DNA from: Candidatus Aenigmatarchaeota archaeon
GTDB lineage: Archaea; Aenigmatarchaeota; Aenigmatarchaeia; Aenigmatarchaeales; Aenigmatarchaeaceae
NCBI GenBank assembly: GCA_043814985.1
Contig: JBDRJK010000014.1
Coordinates: 1 to 64,000, forward strand
Reading direction: 5' to 3'
Length of the DNA stretch: 64,000 nucleotides
This document shows, piece by piece, positions 1,842-29,117 of this stretch (position 1 is the stretch's first letter; each line of letters opens with the position of its first letter). The notes beneath the pieces are model-generated. The model had not been told where the DNA came from, did no database searches, and saw only the letters and a list, made by a program, of their open reading frames with translations. Position numbers and translations under genes: made by a program.

Positions 1842-2387
1842 GTGTATAATGCTAAAATTGCTGAAGATTTTTCGATATTAATGATAGGTTCGATAGAAAG
1901 ACCTGTTCCTTCTGATTTACATATTCAGAAAGAGATGTTTGTATTAACCCAAACTATTCCCGATCTCCGGGAAATTTTTAATTTTAAAAAACATTATCAA
2001 GGGCCGTTTTCTCAAATATTGAGAGATATTATTGACAGTCCTATCTATGTAGATAGAGCATTCGAACGAAGAGGTAGAAGTATACTTCTTAGCAAGAACG
2101 GGAAGAAAGAATTTAATAATATAGTAAAAAGAAACATCAAAGAAGAAGATTTCAATATTTTAAATATTAACATTAAATTGATTAGAAACATTTATGATAG
2201 ACTCAATCGTTTTGAACTATTATTCTTAGTTTACGATACCTATCCAAAATACATTGAAATGTCCGATGTATATAATTCTATTATAAAAAACAAGAAACTT
2301 GTAAATGAAATTATTGTAAATTTAATAAGAAAAGGTTCGATAACCGAAGATAGGTTCATGGAAATTAAAAAGAGGTACAATCTATGA
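1842..2387 (+). CDS. winged-helix protein, Panacea/SocA/YwgA-like putative antitoxin
   Basis: HIQKEMF...FKKHYQGPFS resembles the LQK..F / (Y)GP(Y/F)S signature; overlaps the downstream PIN gene (ATGA). Confidence 0.5.
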   Translation: MYNAKIAEDFSILMIGSIERPVPSDLHIQKEMFVLTQTIPDLREIFNFKKHYQGPFSQILRDIIDSPIYVDRAFERRGRSILLSKNGKKEFNNIVKRNIKEEDFNILNINIKLIRNIYDRLNRFELLFLVYDTYPKYIEMSDVYNSIIKNKKLVNEIIVNLIRKGSITEDRFMEIKKRYNL

Positions 2388-2920
2388 CAGATTTATTGGC
2401 GGATTCAAGCTTCTATATTTGTTTTCTTGATAATATTAAATCTCCAGAAAATCTAATAAAAATATTAGAAAAATTTAGTTCATCATTCCCACCTGTAATA
2501 TTTAGTGAAGTTAAGAAATCAAAAAGATCAAAGGAAATTTTTGAAAACAAAAAGCTGAATATCAATATTTTTGAGGGAGAGATACATATAAGTGAAGTTC
2601 TTAGACCTTTCTTTTCTATTGAACAAAAAGAAAGAGGTGAACATGAATTAATTGTACTTGCTTTTATTTGTTATAACATGAAAATGAAATTTGAGCTTGT
2701 AATAGATGATAAACAAGCCAGAAATTTTATTAAAAGAAATTTAATCTATCTATCAAAAAATTTGAAAGACACTATCAACTTTTTATGTGATTGTTATTCC
2801 GTTTATGGTATATTCAAAAAAGAAGAGGTATTAGATATTTTTAATTTAATAGAAAATTCAAATTATGGAGTTAAGAAAGAGATTATGTTTGAAGCTAAGA
2901 AAAAAATGAGGTGCAATTAA
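2384..2920 (+). CDS. PIN-domain (VapC-like) ribonuclease
   Basis: LLADSSF, VIFSEV, RGEHE, VIDDKQAR: acidic PIN motifs in the expected order. Confidence 0.8.
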   Translation: MTDLLADSSFYICFLDNIKSPENLIKILEKFSSSFPPVIFSEVKKSKRSKEIFENKKLNINIFEGEIHISEVLRPFFSIEQKERGEHELIVLAFICYNMKMKFELVIDDKQARNFIKRNLIYLSKNLKDTINFLCDCYSVYGIFKKEEVLDIFNLIENSNYGVKKEIMFEAKKKMRCN

Positions 2921-2921
2921 C

Positions 2922-4091
2922 TTGACTAAAATAAAAATGAAAGAATCTATTGAAGATAAAAACTCTTGGTTCAATGTCAAGAGGTTTAGCATATCCGGTT
3001 TGAAAGAAGATTTTTCGAAAAAAACTGTTGATGTCAATAATATAACAAAGACGTTATATGAGAATACAACAGAGTTACAAAAGGGAGAATTTATCTTCCA
3101 AAAAAGTAAAACAATAAAGAACATAGAATCTGTCAAAGAAATAATAAACCAGGAAGACAACACCAAAATAAAAAATTATTTTGGATGGAGAGGATGGTTA
3201 AAAGATAAATTCACAATTTTAACATTTACATTAGATTTCAATCCTTTTGATAGCATTAAAAAAATAGAGGATTTATCAGGCTTCTTTCAATATTATTATT
3301 CTTATTCCGGAAAGATTTTGTTTATACCCAATATAAGAAGGGATAAAGATATTTTTTCTAATGGTAAAAAACAGGGAAATCGGGAAATAATTAATTTAGA
3401 TGGTTATAAAAAATTTGTATCACAATCTTTTGATTTTTTCTCCCAAAAAAACAATAAACCAATTTTTGTTCCAATTTCTCTTAGATTTGGTATTGGAAAA
3501 ATAGAAGAACTAATTAAATTTTACTTAAAAAATGAAAACTTTCTATTTTGGATTGATTTTGAGGGCAAAGCCATTGATGAAGCACAAACAGCTAAGATAA
3601 GGGAAATAAATCGTGTCTTAAAGGATGAAAAAAGATTTGATGAAACATTAATAGTCTTTAACAATATGAAAAGGGAGATAAGGTCCAATATCAAGGAAGA
3701 TAAAAGTCCAGCTTCTGATGTTCTTGGACCATTATATGGAGCAAATATAGTAGGGGTTGATAAAGAACCTGCAAGATATTTCGGACCTAATTTTAAACCA
3801 GAAGAAGTAATATTCGAGCATAAAGCAAGGAAATTTGATGAAAAAACTTATTATTATAAAAAAACAACAGATAACAAATTCTTGACAAAACATAAAAATG
3901 TTACAAATAACTCAATAGAACTTGGTAATGAATTTCTAAAACAAAGAAAATATTTTTTGAAAAAACAAGAAATCGAAAATTACATAAAAACAAAAGAAAT
4001 GATAATTAAATATAACAAAGGTAGAATTTTATCTGATATAAAGAAAAATCTCTTAAAACAAGGAAGTTTGAAAAAATTCTTAATTAATTAA
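2922..4091 (+). CDS. uncharacterised protein, possibly TIM-barrel/TGT-like, with C-terminal PIP-box-like motif
   Basis: 389-aa ORF in operon; alternating beta/alpha pattern (KPIFVPI, FWIDFEG, YGANIVG); ends QGSLKKFL. Confidence 0.5.
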   Translation: MTKIKMKESIEDKNSWFNVKRFSISGLKEDFSKKTVDVNNITKTLYENTTELQKGEFIFQKSKTIKNIESVKEIINQEDNTKIKNYFGWRGWLKDKFTILTFTLDFNPFDSIKKIEDLSGFFQYYYSYSGKILFIPNIRRDKDIFSNGKKQGNREIINLDGYKKFVSQSFDFFSQKNNKPIFVPISLRFGIGKIEELIKFYLKNENFLFWIDFEGKAIDEAQTAKIREINRVLKDEKRFDETLIVFNNMKREIRSNIKEDKSPASDVLGPLYGANIVGVDKEPARYFGPNFKPEEVIFEHKARKFDEKTYYYKKTTDNKFLTKHKNVTNNSIELGNEFLKQRKYFLKKQEIENYIKTKEMIIKYNKGRILSDIKKNLLKQGSLKKFLIN

Positions 4092-21889: not shown

Positions 21890-22606
21890 ATGGATACACA
21901 AAGCCTGTCAAAGGAAAAGTTCGCAAAGAGGATAGCAGGTGAGATAGTTCTTAGTAATGAAGCTGGACAAGTAATCAAAAAGTGGAGAAATGTTTTCAAG
22001 ATACCACAGAGAAGGCTTGCTGATGAAATGAAGATAATGCCTTCTGTTATATCAGACTATGAGAACGGGAGAAGGAAGTCACCGGGGATAAAGATGATTA
22101 AGAAGATTGTTGAGTCATTGATAAACATTGATGAGAGACGTGGCGGCAAGATAATACAGGAGTTTGCCGAGTTGCCAACACAGGCTGTCCTTTCAGAGGC
22201 TGTTCTGGATATGAGGGAGTTCGACGTCCCAATAACAATTAGGGATTTCTGTAATAGTGTTGATGCTTCTGTTGTCGTGAGGAAGGATTTAGAAGAAAAG
22301 AAGATTTATGGTTATACAGTAATAGACTCATTGAAAGCCATAATGGACCTTTCTCCAATGGACATGGTCAAACTTTACGGCCTGACAAGCGAGAGGGTTC
22401 TGATATTCACAGGAGCCAACAGTGGAAGGAGCTCGATGGTTGCTCTCAAAGTGACAAACCTGAGGCCCGGCCTAGTCATACTACATGGTTCTGAGAGGTT
22501 AGATGATCTGGCAAAAAGGATAGCAGAATTAGAGTCAATACCTCTTGGTACAGTAAGGTCAAAGAACACAGACGACTTTCTGAAGAAGTTGAAAAAATCT
22601 TTCTAG
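21890..22606 (+). CDS. XRE-family HTH transcriptional regulator (conserved archaeal)
   Basis: IAGEIVLS, QRRLADEM...SVISDYENGRRKSPG, SGRSSMVA. Confidence 0.88.
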   Translation: MDTQSLSKEKFAKRIAGEIVLSNEAGQVIKKWRNVFKIPQRRLADEMKIMPSVISDYENGRRKSPGIKMIKKIVESLINIDERRGGKIIQEFAELPTQAVLSEAVLDMREFDVPITIRDFCNSVDASVVVRKDLEEKKIYGYTVIDSLKAIMDLSPMDMVKLYGLTSERVLIFTGANSGRSSMVALKVTNLRPGLVILHGSERLDDLAKRIAELESIPLGTVRSKNTDDFLKKLKKSF

Positions 22607-22900
22607 ACACCCCCCCATTACTTGTCGAACTCGAGTTTATAATTAAAAATATTTTTTTATATAATTATATATAACAATGTTATATGAAATGAAGGTTAAC
22701 CTTTTAGTTTGACCTTTTCTTCTCATGAAGATTGTAGTAGAAACCATAGGGTGTTTACTTCTTGTGGAAATATAACAGCGTTATTTATGTTCACATAACC
22801 TTCACAGAGGTGTTTTCCTTAGGAAATGGGGGGGTTAACGTGAAGTAAATTATATATATGTTAATATGTTTAATTACAAAAGAAACAAAGGTTTCATTTG
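22607..22900. other. probable chromosomal replication origin (oriC)
   Basis: Directly upstream of cdc6; inverted ACCCCCCCATT (22609) / AATGGGGGGGT (22825) G-strings; ORB-like TTTCCTTAGGAAA (22814), TAGAAACCATAGGGT and TTGTGGAAA; AT-rich tract at about 22637-22690. Confidence 0.75.
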
Positions 22901-22917
22901 AAATATCGGTGACTTTT

Positions 22918-24114
22918 TTGAACAAAGACGAAAACATATTTACTAAATTCTTACAGACTAAACCTATCTTTTCTAATAGGGACGTGTTAACTATTTCTTT
23001 CACACCAGAAACAATACCCCACAGGGAGAAGCAAGTTAATGATCTTGGAAGAATTTTGACTCCTGCTCTGAAGAATGGAAGACCCAGTAATGTATTCCTA
23101 TATGGAAGAACAGGTACAGGGAAGACATTGGTTTCCAGATTTGTAGGTTCTGAATTGGAAAAAATGAGCGAGCAGAATGGAAACAACGTGAAGACCATCT
23201 ATGTTAATTGTAAAATGAAGAGAGTGGCTGACACAGAGTATAGATTATTGGCAGAGTTATCTAAGAAATTAGGGAAAACAGTCCCATTTACTGGTTTACC
23301 AACAGACCAAGTATACCAAATATTCTTCGAAACCTTGGAAAAACAGGGCAAGACAATAATCCTGATTATTGATGAGATAGATGCCTTAGTCCAGAAGACT
23401 GGTGATGAGATTCTCTACAACCTGACTAGGATCAACCAGGAGCTGAAAAACTCAAAATTATCCATAATCGGCATAACAAACAACCTTGGTTTCATAGAAA
23501 GCTTGGATCCAAGGGTGAAAAGCTCCCTGAGTGAGGAAGAGCTCATATTTCCACCTTACAATGCCTTGCAGCTACAGGAAATCCTGAGAAAAAGGTCTGC
23601 AGTAGCGTTCGTATCAGATGTTCTTGGTGTTGGTGTCATAGAGAAGTGCGCTGCTCTGGCTGCTCAGGAGCATGGAGATGCAAGAAGAGCCTTGGATTTG
23701 TTAAGAGTTTCAGGAGAGTTAGCAGAGAGGAACGCAGATGAGAAGGTAAGCATAAAGCATGTTGATTTGGCAGAGGAAAAAATAGATGTAGATAGGGTAG
23801 TGGAGACGGTGAAGGCCCAGCCAAGACAGAGCCAAGCTGTCCTCTTTTCAATGGTTCAGCTAGCTGAGAAGAACAGAGAAATACAAACTGGTGAGGTCTT
23901 TGACAAATATAATGATTTATGCAGGGAACAGGGGCTGAAGCCTTTAACAACTAGAAGGGTATCTGACCTAATATCTGAATTGGACCTTTTCGGCATAATA
24001 AACACCAAAATAATATCCAGGGGAAGACATGGAAGGACGAGAGTCATAACACTAAGTCTGTCTGATACTGTCTACAACAAGTTAAAAAGTCTTTTAGAAG
24101 AGATATTCATATGA
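22918..24114 (+). CDS. cdc6: Orc1/Cdc6 replication initiator
   Basis: PETIPHRE, YGRTGTGKT, IIDEID, LDPRVKSSL, HGDARRALDLLR, C-terminal wHTH; TTG start after GGTGA RBS chosen over ORF-track 22858. Confidence 0.97.
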   Translation: MNKDENIFTKFLQTKPIFSNRDVLTISFTPETIPHREKQVNDLGRILTPALKNGRPSNVFLYGRTGTGKTLVSRFVGSELEKMSEQNGNNVKTIYVNCKMKRVADTEYRLLAELSKKLGKTVPFTGLPTDQVYQIFFETLEKQGKTIILIIDEIDALVQKTGDEILYNLTRINQELKNSKLSIIGITNNLGFIESLDPRVKSSLSEEELIFPPYNALQLQEILRKRSAVAFVSDVLGVGVIEKCAALAAQEHGDARRALDLLRVSGELAERNADEKVSIKHVDLAEEKIDVDRVVETVKAQPRQSQAVLFSMVQLAEKNREIQTGEVFDKYNDLCREQGLKPLTTRRVSDLISELDLFGIINTKIISRGRHGRTRVITLSLSDTVYNKLKSLLEEIFI

Positions 24115-25016
24115 ACCATATTCGCGTCAAGAATCTGATTAGTTCTGGTTTTCTTGTAAACGGTGAGATAGCTTCTAACATAGAGGCCTTAAGCGAGGAT
24201 GATTTTCTTCTGCTGCAAGAGAAATTAAAAAAGGAAAAAGCCTTTGTTTTGTCAAAGGAACTCATTAACAGACTTCTAACCAAGGAAATAGAAATTCTAA
24301 GCCAGTTCAAGCCTGTTGAGGCTATAACTATTCAGGACTTTGTTAAGACATTGAATGAACGCTATAGTTTTCTACAAGGCATCCTGCTGGATAAAGTTGA
24401 ATTAAAGAATATTGTTTCAATAAACAAGGCCGGTAACGGTGACGTTAGCATAATAGGGCTTGTTAAGGAGATATCTGAAAAGGATAGCAATACTCTTGTC
24501 GTTCTAGAGGACCCAACAGGCAGCATTGAAACAGTAATTGACAAAAAAATAGCTGAAAGGCTCTGTTTGGATGATGTTGTTGCTGTAACGGGAAAAATAA
24601 ACAATAGAACTCTCTCTGTAGATAAGCTTCTATTCCCCAATATTCCCCTAAGGCCTGTCAATTACAGTAAAGAAAGTGTAAGAATAGCCTTTTCAGAAAA
24701 CGGGAAGAAAATAGGTGCGGATTATGTTATATACAAGAACAAAATCCGGGACAACATAAAGAACAAGTCATATGAAATATCATGTCCATGCTTTGTCAAG
24801 ATAAAGAATGTGACCGTTTTGGTTGTTTTCAACACTGATCCTATTAACCTGCTGAACAAAAGGTATGCGAATATATGCAACAGGGACTTGCTGGTAAAGA
24901 CAATCCCAGACATTCTATTCACCAACAATGGTAAAAACATGAGCTACAAGGGTGTCAGCATAGTATCATTAGATAATGTGATTGATTTGAAAACAAGGGA
25001 AGTTAAACAAGTTTAG
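24111..25016 (+). CDS. degenerate DNA polymerase D small subunit (DP1) homolog lacking exonuclease motifs
   Basis: DFVKTLNERYSFLQ, OB fold (IIGLVKE, LEDPTG, DDVVAVTG), PDILF, YKGV, IDLKT; canonical position after cdc6; only 301 aa. Confidence 0.8.
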   Translation: MNHIRVKNLISSGFLVNGEIASNIEALSEDDFLLLQEKLKKEKAFVLSKELINRLLTKEIEILSQFKPVEAITIQDFVKTLNERYSFLQGILLDKVELKNIVSINKAGNGDVSIIGLVKEISEKDSNTLVVLEDPTGSIETVIDKKIAERLCLDDVVAVTGKINNRTLSVDKLLFPNIPLRPVNYSKESVRIAFSENGKKIGADYVIYKNKIRDNIKNKSYEISCPCFVKIKNVTVLVVFNTDPINLLNKRYANICNRDLLVKTIPDILFTNNGKNMSYKGVSIVSLDNVIDLKTREVKQV

Positions 25017-25048
25017 TATTTTTAAGTTTAACCTTTCAATGTAATTAA

Positions 25049-25507
25049 ATGTTCAATATATATTTTAGGCCAGATGAAATTTCACGTCTGAAAAGGACTG
25101 TTACAACGGCAAATGTAAGAGACTTGGGAAATGATATAGCCTCCATTGAAAGATTATATGAGAGTTTTGGCAGCAAACTTCAAAAGAATTTTACTGTTGG
25201 AAAGAAAGGTATTTGGTCTGATAACGCTGCTTTATCAAAATATTCAGGCACAAAAACACCAAAATATCTAAAATGTGATTTTGTTAGAATTAAAAACAAC
25301 TCACTCAATCCTAAAGGCATTTTAATGTTTGATTCTAAAGGACATTCTGCCTGTCTGAATGGTGAAGCTAAAACAGTTGACCAGATTATAGAAATTGAAA
25401 GAAACAAAAGTTTTATTGATAGCTGCATCAACGCATACTATAGTGAAAGGGTGCTAAAGGTAATGGAGAAGGACTGTCATTTTGTAATAAAAGAACCAAT
25501 TCTTTAA
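25049..25507 (+). CDS. hypothetical protein
   Basis: 152-aa ORF between the DP1-like gene and polB. Confidence 0.55.
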   Translation: MFNIYFRPDEISRLKRTVTTANVRDLGNDIASIERLYESFGSKLQKNFTVGKKGIWSDNAALSKYSGTKTPKYLKCDFVRIKNNSLNPKGILMFDSKGHSACLNGEAKTVDQIIEIERNKSFIDSCINAYYSERVLKVMEKDCHFVIKEPIL

Positions 25508-25546
25508 CCAAAAAGCCTTTAAATCTTTTAGACCTATAAGAGTGTT

Positions 25547-28195
25547 ATGGAAATCCAAATTCTTGATTGCGACTACATAGTTCTTAACAACAAGCCGATA
25601 GTCAGGATATTTGGAAAGACAATGGAAGGCAAGAGTGTTTGCGTTTTGCATAAGGACTTCCTGCCATATTTCTACCTTCACGCTGATGAGAAGAAGTATC
25701 CTGAGATTATGATGAACATACATGAGGATTATCCTGGTTTGGTGATTGAGACAGTTGAGAGAAATATGCCAATAGGGTTCCAGGACCCAGTAAAAGTCCT
25801 CAAGATAACAGGAGACAATCCTGCAAAAATAAGGGAGATAAGGGAAGCCCTTTCAAAGTTCGGTACGCCATACGAGGCAGATGTTCTTTTCAAGTACAGG
25901 TTCATGGCAGACCACGATCTGAAGGGTATGGGGTGGATAGATGTTGAGGGCAGCTTCAAAAAAACCAGCATAGTAAAGTGCAGCGCCCTGGATGCGAAAT
26001 CAATCAAACCCATTGAGAAAATGAAGAATGCCCCTTTGAGATACCTTTCACTTGACATTGAATGCCTTTCAAACGGACAGAGAGTCCCAACACCTGAGAA
26101 GGACAACATAATAATTATAAGCCTCGCGTTCTCGCCGGATTATAAGAGAAAAAAGACGCTTGTTTTGTTGGCTAAACAAACAAGGGCAAGAGGAGAGGAT
26201 ATAATCTCTTCCTCCAGTGAGAAGGAGATGCTGGAAAAATTGAATGACATTATAAATGACTACGATCCTGACATCATATGCGGCCATAACATAAACGGTT
26301 TCGACCTCCCCTTTATCCTGAAGCGCATGGAAATATTCAATGTTCCAAGAAACATAGGAAGGTCTGAGAAAAGCGCATATACCAGGAAATTACAATATAG
26401 CTACATTCCAAGCATTTCAGGAAGAGTTGTTGTTGACACCTTTGAAATTTACAAGAGCGACCCATGGGTCAAGTTAAAGAGGTATAATCTGGAGACAATC
26501 TCGCAAAAAATGCTTGGTGTTGGAAAGGTTGAGATAGGAGGGAGCCATCCAGACCAGATACGTGAGATGTGGAACGGTAAGGAAATAGGCAAGCTTGTAG
26601 ACTATGCCAGAATGGATGCTGTTCTTGTTCTTAGGCTTGTTGAGGAAAAGAACTTGCTTGGCAAGTTCTTCGAAATATCGAAACTATCAGGAGTCCTGCT
26701 GCAGGACAGCCTTGGCGGGCAGTCGCAGAGGCATCAGATAAGACTGTTGGGAGAGTTCTACAAAAGAAAGTTCATAATGCCATGTAGGCCGGATGATGTT
26801 ACGACCAGATTAAAGGACGACAAATTGAAGGGAGCTTTGGTATTGGAACCTGACGTTGGTCTTCATGAATGGATAATATGTCTTGACTTCACCAGCATGT
26901 ATCCATCATTAATCACATCATTCAATATCTGTACGACAACCCTTCTTAACGATGAAAGGGATGTTGAAAGCATGTCAACACCCTACGGAACTAGATATGT
27001 CAAGCCAAGCGTTCGTAAGGGGATTATACCTCAAGTTTTAGAGGAATATATGATTAAGAGAGCCGAGGCAAAAAAACAATACAAGATTGAGACAGACCAG
27101 GAAACCAGAAGAATATTGAAGGCAAAGCAGCTCGCTCTCAAGGACTTAGCGAACAGCCTCTATGGTTACACTGGCTATGCTAGGTCAAGACTCTTCGTCA
27201 TGAGCATAGCAAACTCAATAACATCTCTTGGTAGGGACGCAATAACAAAGACAAAAAAGTTGATAGAGGATAATTATCCTGTAAAAGTGATTTATGCTGA
27301 CACAGATTCTGTTTTTCTAAAGTCTAATATAAAGGATTTGGAAGAGTCAATGGAGTTTGGTGCTGAAATATCCAAGTTCATTTCAAACAAACTCTACGGT
27401 CTTGATCTAAAGTTCGAAAAGACTTACAAATCATTTTTAATTTTGGCCAAGAAGAGGTATGCAGGATGGGCCTTTGAAAAGGAGAATGGAAAATGGATTA
27501 GTAAAATTGATATGAAAGGAATTGAGACTGTTAGAAGGGACTGGTGTGAGATGGTCTCAAGCACAACATTCGATGTACTGAATATTATTTTGAAGGAGAA
27601 TGATATTAAAAAAGCCTCGAAGTATGTCAGGAACATTATTAATGATCTAGCAAAGGGCAAGATTTCTCTTGATATGTTGAAAATTACCAAAGGAGTCTCA
27701 AAGCCTCTGGACAAATACGATGGCATCCAACCTCATGTAGAGCTTGCAAAAAAGTTGATGAAGAGGGACAAAACAAAGTCGCTAGTTGGCCAGCGTTTAG
27801 AATATGTCATAATACGGGGTAACCAACTCTTATCAAAGAGAGCCGAGGACCCGAAATATGTTATAGAAAACAATCTGAAGATAGACCCGCAATATTATAT
27901 TTACAACCAATTGCTGCCGCCGCTGGAAAGGATTTTTGAAGTGTGCGGCATCAGTTCTTCTGAACTGATAGAAGGTGTGAGGCAGAAGAGCCTGCTTGAT
28001 ATTTTTGATGGACAAAAAAAACAGATGTCGCCTGAAAATACAGTTCTGAAAGAATTTGAGTCGGTTGTGTGCAAGGACTGCGACTGGAATTTTAGGAGAC
28101 CGACATTGACTGGTAAATGCCCAAAATGTTCTGGAACTTTATATTTTTCTTCAAAAGGTTCCATTGGAAAGACAGTCCAATTTAACAAACCTTAA
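25547..28195 (+). CDS. polB: family B DNA polymerase with PIP box and C-terminal Zn finger
   Basis: Exo DIE, HNINGFD, YARMD; Pol DFTSMYPS, KDLANSLYGY, YADTDS; QKSLLDIF; CKDC...CPKC. Confidence 0.97.
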   Translation: MEIQILDCDYIVLNNKPIVRIFGKTMEGKSVCVLHKDFLPYFYLHADEKKYPEIMMNIHEDYPGLVIETVERNMPIGFQDPVKVLKITGDNPAKIREIREALSKFGTPYEADVLFKYRFMADHDLKGMGWIDVEGSFKKTSIVKCSALDAKSIKPIEKMKNAPLRYLSLDIECLSNGQRVPTPEKDNIIIISLAFSPDYKRKKTLVLLAKQTRARGEDIISSSSEKEMLEKLNDIINDYDPDIICGHNINGFDLPFILKRMEIFNVPRNIGRSEKSAYTRKLQYSYIPSISGRVVVDTFEIYKSDPWVKLKRYNLETISQKMLGVGKVEIGGSHPDQIREMWNGKEIGKLVDYARMDAVLVLRLVEEKNLLGKFFEISKLSGVLLQDSLGGQSQRHQIRLLGEFYKRKFIMPCRPDDVTTRLKDDKLKGALVLEPDVGLHEWIICLDFTSMYPSLITSFNICTTTLLNDERDVESMSTPYGTRYVKPSVRKGIIPQVLEEYMIKRAEAKKQYKIETDQETRRILKAKQLALKDLANSLYGYTGYARSRLFVMSIANSITSLGRDAITKTKKLIEDNYPVKVIYADTDSVFLKSNIKDLEESMEFGAEISKFISNKLYGLDLKFEKTYKSFLILAKKRYAGWAFEKENGKWISKIDMKGIETVRRDWCEMVSSTTFDVLNIILKENDIKKASKYVRNIINDLAKGKISLDMLKITKGVSKPLDKYDGIQPHVELAKKLMKRDKTKSLVGQRLEYVIIRGNQLLSKRAEDPKYVIENNLKIDPQYYIYNQLLPPLERIFEVCGISSSELIEGVRQKSLLDIFDGQKKQMSPENTVLKEFESVVCKDCDWNFRRPTLTGKCPKCSGTLYFSSKGSIGKTVQFNKP

Positions 28196-28220
28196 ATTCT
28201 CTTACTTCTAATCATTATGA

Positions 28221-29117
28221 ATGCATCTTACAGTGGGTTTATTTGGTAGCCAGGAACTTGCCGGCAAGCTGGGAAAGAAAGGAACAACAAACGATATAGC
28301 CATATTCAATCACAGCAGTTCAAACGGAGTTTTCACATATGTTTGTCCTAATTCTGAAAAGATACAGCCTCTAATGGAAGTTCTGAATATGATTGTCCTA
28401 CCAGTAATTGTCATCAAAGAAATCACCAAGGAAATGGGTGAGATTATAATAGGGATAGACCAGATGATGTTTGAAAGAGGATTTATCATAACTCAGATGT
28501 CAGATGATGTAAGCAAGTTTGTAAAAAACACAACATTAGAAAAATTTGAGATAATAGATGAGAAGGAATTGTGGCCAAAACTTCTTGAGTTGAAAATAGA
28601 AAAGAACGACGAGAATCTAATGCTTCCTATTGACAACTATTTCAATGTGAAGGGCATAGGCACTGTTGTGCTTGGTGTAATCAAAGGCGGTCAAGTAAAG
28701 TTGCACGACAAGCTTATGATGGAGCCCTTGGGCAGGGAGGTTGTTGTGAAGGGTATACAGGCCCAGGATAAGAACGTAAAGGAAACTGAGCCGGGTATGA
28801 GAGTCGGTCTAAACCTTAAGGGAGTTGCAACAGATGAGATAAAAAGAGGGTTTATTATTTGTAAGGAAATAGAGAAGACTAAGGAAATAACACTGAGTTT
28901 CAAGAAAAGCAAGTTCTTCAAGCAGGAATTAAACCCAGGATTACAAGTACTCCTCTCCGTAGGTTTGCAGGTAACAACTTGCAATGTGGAATCAGTTGGT
29001 GAAGAGTTGAAATTAAAATCCAACAGTGAAATAGCCTACAGGAAAAACCAGAGGTGTATAGTGGCTTCCTTAAATAACACAATCCCAAGAATAATCGGCA
29101 GTGGTGTCATAGTATAG
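28221..29117 (+). CDS. SelB/EF-Tu-like protein with degenerate G domain
   Basis: IDNYFNVKGIGTVVLG, GMRVGLNLKG, RGFII, RIIGSG; no intact P-loop. Confidence 0.8.
   Translation: MHLTVGLFGSQELAGKLGKKGTTNDIAIFNHSSSNGVFTYVCPNSEKIQPLMEVLNMIVLPVIVIKEITKEMGEIIIGIDQMMFERGFIITQMSDDVSKFVKNTTLEKFEIIDEKELWPKLLELKIEKNDENLMLPIDNYFNVKGIGTVVLGVIKGGQVKLHDKLMMEPLGREVVVKGIQAQDKNVKETEPGMRVGLNLKGVATDEIKRGFIICKEIEKTKEITLSFKKSKFFKQELNPGLQVLLSVGLQVTTCNVESVGEELKLKSNSEIAYRKNQRCIVASLNNTIPRIIGSGVIV

Follow-up and report, generated by a model that had tools for sequence, protein, structure and literature searches.

An inactivated DP1 and a family-B polymerase with a DP2-type zinc finger: a probable two-subunit replicase in an Aenigmatarchaeota genome

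Introduction

The window analysed here is 64,000 nucleotides long and covers positions 1 to 64,000 of contig JBDRJK010000014.1 (C14:1-64000) in the assembly of a Candidatus Aenigmatarchaeota archaeon (GCA_043814985.1; 808 kb in 21 contigs, 91.2% complete, 0.9% contaminated). It encodes a DP1-like protein of 301 residues and, downstream on the same strand, a family-B DNA polymerase (PolB) of 882 residues. DP1 is a subunit of the archaeal DNA polymerase D (PolD), the catalytic subunit of which is DP2. The locus raises the question of which polymerase is served by a DP1 without its active site in a genome where DP2 cannot be found. A reading of the window from its letters alone (below, the sequence-only reading) offered two answers: a heterodimer of PolB and the dead DP1, or a PolD devoid of proofreading.

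The results favour, with a probability of about 0.85, a family-B replicase of two subunits in the form it takes in Aenigmatarchaeota, in which the tail-bearing PolB is combined with the dead DP1. The lineage has no detectable DP2. Sequence comparisons show that the C-terminal zinc finger of DP2 now ends a Pol delta-like PolB with a proofreading exonuclease of its own, and that DP1 has been retained from PolD with its phosphoesterase active site gone.

The window is an instance of a published Aenigmarchaeota system, that of the B6-aenigma1 PolB and the inactive DP1, and is in this sense already known. In the available part of their text, Kazlauskas et al. (2020, NAR 48:10142; PMC7544198) described B6-aenigma1 PolBs with a DP2-like zinc-finger C-terminal domain in Aenigmarchaeota and reported the absence of DP2 from most sequenced members. 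An inactive DP1 group, named 'Aenigma_GB_GCA_002789635-like', was found to co-occur with these PolBs, and PolB was proposed to have replaced DP2 (PMC7544198). A later study (PMC12680538, Nat Ecol Evol 2025), also available in part, reported by AlphaFold3 and yeast two-hybrid the binding of DP1 to the DP2-tailed PolB in Aenigmatarchaeota and Baldrarchaeia, and no interaction of DP1 with canonical PolBs; 'B6-aenigma2' was put down to contamination from Baldrarchaeia. In the available part of PMC6355029, Aenigmarchaeota are only listed among the DPANN lineages with PolD.

Fold and lost active site of the DP1-like protein

The match of the DP1 profile NF003118 to the 301-residue protein (E 8e-22) was confined to profile positions 77-230 of 481, i.e. 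to the OB region. The OB fold PF01336 was the sole Pfam family detected, and no Pfam match to the metallophosphoesterase family was obtained. The protein consists of a four-helix N-terminal domain (residues 1-56), a linker helix, the OB fold (~100-175) and a phosphoesterase stub (~186-301). The AlphaFold2 model, built on an alignment of 51 proteins, had a mean predicted local distance difference test score (pLDDT) of 89.6 and a predicted TM-score (pTM) of 0.79. With this model as the Foldseek query, the DP1 chains of P. abyssi were the top matches (E 2e-15 to 1e-11), followed by the eukaryotic B subunits. The VIA-align superposition with P. abyssi DP1 resulted in a Z of 18.4 and a root-mean-square deviation of 2.9-3.3 over 236-239 residues (model 57-301, chain 194-613), and the Z values with the second subunits of human and yeast Pol delta, alpha, epsilon and zeta were 15-16. 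The trait of the DP1/B-subunit superfamily, an OB fold followed by a calcineurin-like phosphoesterase fold, is present, the phosphoesterase part being reduced to a stub.

Active DP1 bears its metal ligands in five phosphoesterase motifs (SDxH, GDxxDG, GNHD, H and GHxH). The motif strings used for comparison were taken from the DP1 of family f11 of the same phylum. When aligned to this full-length DP1, the window protein retained none of the seven metal ligands, and the His of motif III was absent as well; its sole His residue is H3. Motif I (SDxH) is represented by SEN and motif IV by FNT, and motifs II and III and the GHxH of motif V are deleted. The string PDILFT...YKGV aligned with PDLVQMGHVH...YRGV of P. 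abyssi, with GHxH gone. The deletions in the phosphoesterase domain amount to ~180 residues. The sequence-only reading had described a 301-residue DP1 homologue with an OB fold and PDILF/YKGV remnants but without the calcineurin-like metal motifs, and both parts of this description were confirmed, the former by PF01336, NF003118 and the alignment to P. abyssi and the latter by the ligand count and the single His. Having no active phosphoesterase site, the DP1-like protein is, as judged from its residues, not an active proofreading DP1.

PolB and its DP2-type tail

The exonuclease motifs of PolB (DIE170, NINGFD248 and YARMDA353) and its polymerase motifs (DFTSMYPS447, KDLANSLYG of motif B, YADTDS583, KKRY635 and GIETVRRD658) were found intact. 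Towards the C-terminus lie the PCNA-interacting-protein (PIP)-like box QKSLLDIF813 and, after it, CKDC842 and CPKC858, which form a single CxxC-x12-CxxC. The intact exonuclease, GIETVRRD658, PIP-like box and CxxC...CxxC tail that had been listed for PolB beforehand could thus all be located by motif position. Only one Cys4 motif is present in the last 60 residues, so the two-motif pattern of the eukaryotic enzymes (CysA and CysB) is lacking.

Among the solved relatives of PolB, the Pol delta catalytic subunits scored best (352-362 bits; 4e-107 to 7e-104), and the best archaeal PolB reached 300 bits. This ranking, which consists of similarity scores and not of a tree, agrees with the clade placement of B6-aenigma1. 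With its exonuclease and polymerase domains and a single DP2-type Cys4 at the C-terminus, PolB shows two traits of this group; it appears Delta-like and fits B6-aenigma1.

The origin of the tail was indicated by two DP2 profiles, which matched PolB residues 839-879 with positions 1041-1081 of 1125 in NF003103 and with positions 1267-1307 of 1350 in NF011302. When 11 PolB tails were aligned to five DP2 tails, C55, C58, R64, L67, G69, C71 and C74 were invariant, and R63 and G84 were conserved in at least 90% of the sequences. Beyond the finger, DP2 runs for ~45 more residues to a terminal PIP-like motif. On the strength of these alignments, the PolB tail is homologous to the zinc finger at the C-terminus of DP2. 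The PIP-like box of PolB is internal, being located before the appended tail; its Q813 is invariant and its L816 is conserved in at least 90% of the sequences (alignment columns Q26 and L29).

Occurrence and linkage of the two genes in the phylum

The occurrence of the components was determined in a phylum sample of 151 genomes, own genome included. DP1-like matches were obtained in 137 genomes (80 of the 89 with a completeness of at least 90%) and matches to the PolB tail, with residues 801-882 as the query, in 143, where most of them closed a reading frame of ~880-930 residues. The DP2 N-terminal domain was detected in eight genomes only, namely in all seven of f11 and in one of 32 in f16; it was present in none of the ten genomes of the own family. 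The DP1 frames were 460-523 residues long in f11, 858 residues in one case (G138), and elsewhere mostly 290-450 residues.

The DP2-bearing genomes of f11 had a different set of components. Their DP1 is full-length with all motifs present. Their PolB, searched in five genomes, has ~770 residues with 31-35% identity and ends before the tail. The tail query (positions 39-81) matched the C-termini of DP2 with 40-44% identity; six of the seven genomes had this match in DP2 frames of 1102-1605 residues, whereas G016 had it in a 246-residue frame on another contig. Because DP1 is full-length, PolB is tailless and the tail query hits DP2 where DP2 exists, the heterodimer of PolB and dead DP1 gains support.

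The sole genome outside f11 with DP2 (G091, of f16) carries DP2 and a five-motif DP1 on one 3-kb contig (L027, G091:C64:1-3058). Two further matches come from the same genome, a DP1-like one of the short type on contig C11 and one to the tail on contig C30. The DP2/DP1 contig may be a binning contaminant or artefact, or a real exception.

The gene order was compared in 20 related loci, selected for having the DP1-like and tail matches on one contig. The DP1-like and PolB genes were close to each other in all 20, with the same strand and the order DP1-PolB in 19, and Orc1 was located directly upstream of the DP1-like gene in 17. When the first 42 DP1 matches outside the own genome were paired by eye with tail matches, a tail was found within ~7 kb on the same contig in 36 cases and on another contig in five; no tail match was found for the remaining one.

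This linkage bears on the best surviving alternative, according to which the DP1-like protein works apart from PolB, for instance as an OB protein that associates with GINS/CMG or binds single-stranded DNA, and the zinc finger has another role, e.g. in contacting DNA or PCNA. The alternative is improbable, although it would account for the OB fold and the N-terminal domain being the best-conserved parts of the DP1-like protein and for the strong reduction of both the PolB tail and the phosphoesterase stub. It also has a precedent in Thermococcus, where the DP1 N-terminal domain is reported to bind Gins51 (PMC9023282, available in part). However, the finger is specifically a DP2 element, and the DP2 C-terminal domain that bears it binds DP1 in PolD according to the available text of PMC7544198. 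The tail-bearing PolB and the short DP1 co-occur and adjoin across the phylum, and the yeast two-hybrid binding cited above was reported for Aenigmatarchaeota themselves (PMC12680538, in the part available).

Some tail-bearing PolBs had unusual reading frames. Frames of 1309-1730 residues, as compared with ~890, were observed at L039 (G022), L041 (G064), G116:C96, G106:C2 and G119:C16; at L039 the sequence ceases to align with the PolB of the window beyond query residue 586, beside YADTDS. The lengths and this break suggest intein insertions. Two tail matches contained one in-frame stop each (G149:C11:17904-18155 and G094:C21:5418-5657; TAA and TGA), for which sequencing errors, disrupted genes and recoding are possible explanations.

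Conservation of the DP1-like family

The DP1-like family comprised 113 database clusters at E <= 7e-62. The cluster lengths were nearly all 295-310 residues, with a few shorter, truncated-looking members, and those relatives that carried a source name were labelled as metagenome-assembled genomes of Aenigmarchaeota or Aenigmatarchaeota. Two distant matches were 517-residue proteins with PF04042 and PF00149. The 51 aligned members shared 44-90% identity with the window protein and kept a length of ~300 residues; 26 columns were invariant, none of them His.

These data speak against the possibility that the gene is a functionless, decaying remnant of PolD, which is considered very improbable. 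Such a remnant would be expected to look as this protein does in two respects, as all catalytic motifs with ~180 residues have been lost and the sequence diverges faster than the neighbour genes. In contrast, the constant length and the invariant columns, the confident and compact predicted fold, and reading frames free of interruptions in all 65 loci compared indicate a maintained gene; no stops occurred within the listed DP1 matches of the phylum sample either. The 4-nt overlap with orc1 is also conserved, being found in the window and in five of nine loci of the same family. The scenario of a strain-specific pseudogene, named in the sequence-only reading as one that would overturn its proposal, is excluded by the number of clusters and by the preserved length.

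Search for DP2 in the genome

The DP2 N-terminal domain PF03833 had no match in the window, as had been stated from the sequence alone, and none in the genome (91.2% complete). The sole genome match of the whole-DP2 profile NF003103 was the PolB tail itself (28061-28183, E 1.3e-5). A PolD holoenzyme, for which DP2 has to be encoded, is thus not found in the genome at this completeness. The search for a second intact DP1, recommended beforehand together with that for DP2, was likewise negative in the genome, the other two NF003118 matches being weak and restricted to the OB region (E 2.4e-5 and 8.6e-4). The genome encodes a second PolB of 798 residues (L005:1438-3834, minus strand) with intact motifs and no Cys tail, and contig C21 carries the genes for a GINS subunit (C21:82485-82790) and for PCNA.

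A PolD without proofreading, in which an intact DP2 encoded elsewhere would pair with the dead DP1, is the least probable of the alternatives and is unsupported because no DP2 was found: ~9% of the genome may be unassembled, but neither DP2 profile detected such a gene, DP2 was not found in 143 of the 151 genomes including all ten of the own family, and where it exists (f11), DP1 is full-length with all motifs.

Proposed arrangement of the replicase

The heterodimer of PolB and the dead DP1, one of the two original proposals, is supported by the homology of the tail, the lack of DP2, the conserved linkage, the DP1/B-subunit fold and the published reports. In this genome, the docking of the zinc-finger tail of PolB on the dead DP1 would mirror that of DP2 on DP1 and that of the eukaryotic catalytic subunits on their B subunits. 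The proofreading would be carried out by PolB, and DP1 would serve as a structural adaptor only.

Three further elements of the arrangement are more tentative. The internal PIP-like box might bind PCNA, as suggested by its pattern and conservation. The operon orc1-DP1-polB might adjoin a replication origin. The retained N-terminal domain of DP1 might tie the polymerase to GINS/CMG, in the manner of the DP1 N-terminal domain and Gins51 in Thermococcus. This last idea rests on analogy because the fold matches of the domain were non-significant. Modelled alone (residues 1-72), the domain folded as a four-helix domain with a pLDDT of 76, and no Foldseek match at E 0.001 or better was obtained. Its lower matches were 7e15_C, the N-terminal domain of the Pol epsilon B subunit (2v6z) and AAA+ lid domains.

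Several observations weigh against the proposed heterodimer. The top match of the N-terminal domain was indeed that of DP1 (2kxe), yet only with E 0.2 and a TM-score of 0.52. The phosphoesterase domain of DP1 has lost more than one third of its residues, and a part of the interface known from PolD and the eukaryotic complexes may be missing from the shrunken protein. The PolB tail, on its side, consists of the zinc finger and a short strand only, without the helical end (~45 residues) and the PIP box with which DP2 terminates, and the tail of Aenigmatarchaeota is called 'degenerate' in the available part of PMC12680538. The DP1-like protein is also faster-evolving than its neighbours: its identity within the GTDB family was 33-53% (44-53% in the six closest loci), compared with 46-68% for PolB and 64-81% for Orc1. 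Finally, at a completeness of 91.2% a DP2 on unassembled DNA is conceivable, but it is unlikely, given that DP2 is missing from 143 of the 151 genomes.

Graded loss of the DP1 active site

The state of the active site was compared in 66 aligned DP1 sequences: the window protein, those of the 20 related loci, five of f11, the one of G091, and 39 picked to cover f9-f28. All seven metal ligands together with the motif III His were present in six sequences, the five of f11 and that of G091. Four sequences of f17 and f22 (L047 and L048 from G140 and G132, L103 and L104 from G038 and G112), 369-407 residues long, retained seven of seven ligands, with the motif III His replaced by Met or Ile. DP2 was detected in none of the 12 genomes of f17 and in none of the three of f22. 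The motif III His was absent from all the other sequences, of which nine had 2-6 ligands and 47 had 0-1, the window protein having none. The motif strings of the intermediate forms were recognisable (SDLH, GD, GNMD, H, GHTH); the motif columns of the most reduced forms hinge on how MAFFT aligned sequences that diverge strongly.

As far as these alignments can be trusted, the states of DP1 across the families form a graded decay series rather than the outcome of one inactivation event. A bolder and rather doubtful idea is that the DP2-less Aenigmatarchaeota preserve a stepwise record of the change from a proofreading DP1 to a dead B subunit, the dead subunit possibly being kept as an N-terminal GINS/CMG tether. 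If the forms with seven of seven ligands still bind metal or cut DNA, a PolB holoenzyme with two nuclease modules would result. In that case the series would be a natural model for the inactivation behind the eukaryotic B subunits. The phylum counts and the graded ligand loss may help in choosing proteins for biochemistry on the timing and cause of the nuclease loss in the B subunit.

Relation to known systems

No difference in kind was found between the window and the B6-aenigma1 system, with which it shares the phylum, the Pol delta-like PolB, one DP2-like C-terminal Cys4, the absence of DP2 and the inactive DP1. The window genome also shows the combination of traits described for the inactive DP1 of Aenigmarchaeota, i.e. 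an inactive DP1, no DP2 and a PolB with a C-terminal zinc motif. The extent of the phosphoesterase deletion (301 residues, none of seven ligands), the overlap in the orc1-DP1-polB operon and the decay series do not occur in the available text of PMC7544198 and PMC12680538. What may be new is descriptive only: how many genomes of the phylum carry each component, how tightly the orc1-DP1-polB operon is packed, and how the DP1 active site was lost by degrees.

A similar solution has been described for PolB3 of the Baldrarchaeia (Asgard), where PolB is fused to the DP2 C-terminal domain, DP2 is lost, DP1 is kept and two-hybrid binding was detected. The Baldrarchaeia domain is longer and DP2/eukaryote-like, whereas that of Aenigmatarchaeota is the shorter, 'degenerate' one (both points from PMC12680538, in the part available). 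The tail encoded in the window likewise differs from that of Baldrarchaeia by its single Cys4 motif and the lack of a helical extension.

With archaeal PolD (P. abyssi; 5ihe, 6hms, 6t8h) the pair shares the DP1 fold and the finger CxxC-x4-RRPPL-x-G-x-CxxC of the DP2 C-terminus, but it has neither the DP2 catalytic core nor the DP1 nuclease site, and the polymerase partner belongs to family B. The resemblance to eukaryotic Pol delta, alpha and epsilon (6tny, 4y97, 5vbn) consists of a family-B catalytic subunit, nearest to Pol delta, with an inactivated DP1-type B subunit. The differences are one Cys4 in place of CysA and CysB, and a B subunit shorter by ~130-150 residues. The pair is archaeal and therefore not a member of the eukaryotic families; it can be regarded as a living archaeal analogue of the eukaryotic design of catalytic and B subunits. 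As such it bears on the origin of the eukaryotic replicative polymerases from PolB and PolD parts, a point made in 2020 and tested in 2025, to which the window adds only one more clean, possibly origin-adjacent example.

Gene order and other features of the window

The coordinates of the features are collected in Table 1. All six genes from 21890 to 29117 are located in one row on the plus strand.

Table 1. Features of the replication locus in the window.
Feature	Coordinates	Strand	Evidence
Helix-turn-helix (HTH_3) protein	21890..22606	+	PF01381, E 3.3e-7
Intergenic stretch ahead of orc1	22607..22857		AT-rich core ~22636-22685, weak inverted repeats
Orc1/Cdc6 replication initiator	22858..24114	+	NF001625, 506 bits (cut-off 501); Cdc6_C and Cdc6_lid domains
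Inactivated, shrunken DP1 (B-subunit-like), 301 residues	24111..25016	+	Profile, fold and motif evidence
Orphan open reading frame, 152 residues (ORF152)	25049..25507	+	No Pfam or NCBIfam family
PolB, 882 residues	25547..28195	+	PF00136, E 5.5e-108; PF03104, E 1.4e-38
PIP-like box QKSLLDIF of PolB, residues 813-820	27983..28006	+	Pattern match
C-terminal domain of PolB, DP2-derived: linker, one Cys4 zinc finger, short C-terminal strand	28022..28192	+	
Cys4 zinc finger CKDC842...CPKC858 of PolB	28070-28129	+	
Protein of 298 residues with EF-Tu domain 2 (SelB/EF-1alpha-like middle part)	28221..29117	+	PF03144, E 8.3e-12

The orc1 stop and the start of the DP1-like gene overlap by 4 nt (24111-24114), and in the related loci the junction was seen in L031-L035. 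Such an overlap suggests that the initiator and the polymerase subunit are translationally coupled. The relatives of Orc1 align only from query residue 21-30 onward, and the true start of Orc1 may be ~20-25 codons further in.

The intergenic stretch ahead of orc1 is a candidate replication origin, as inferred from its composition and position. It contains the inverted repeat I1 of 29 nt with 76% complementarity. The GC skew flips its sign near 22 kb, but the gene strand flips there too, which makes the skew weak as an origin signal. A homologue of the helix-turn-helix protein was located upstream of orc1 in 13 of the 20 related loci.

ORF152, located between the DP1-like gene and PolB, was considered as a third subunit and ruled out: it belongs to no family, its sole database match was itself, and no homologue was found between the two genes in any of the 20 related loci. 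It is probably a strain-specific orphan or a spurious reading frame, and not part of the system. PolB had been placed two genes downstream of DP1 in the sequence-only reading, which holds if ORF152 is counted and fails otherwise. The two genes mostly abut in the related loci, as compared with a spacer of 530 bp in the window; the same spacer was ~540 bp in G041 and ~2.7 kb in G103, both with unrelated content.

The 298-residue protein downstream of PolB matched the selB profile TIGR00475 (E 1.1e-24) at positions 158-324 only, and no GTPase-domain match was obtained in the Pfam and NCBIfam profile searches. Its homologues were found downstream in two of the 20 loci, both from genomes of the same genus, and most loci end before that point. 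The protein is treated here simply as a neighbour of PolB.

The Rfam scan of the window gave no family at threshold. The G+C content falls to 0.26 at window positions 2001-4000, compared with ~0.33-0.44 in the remaining window.

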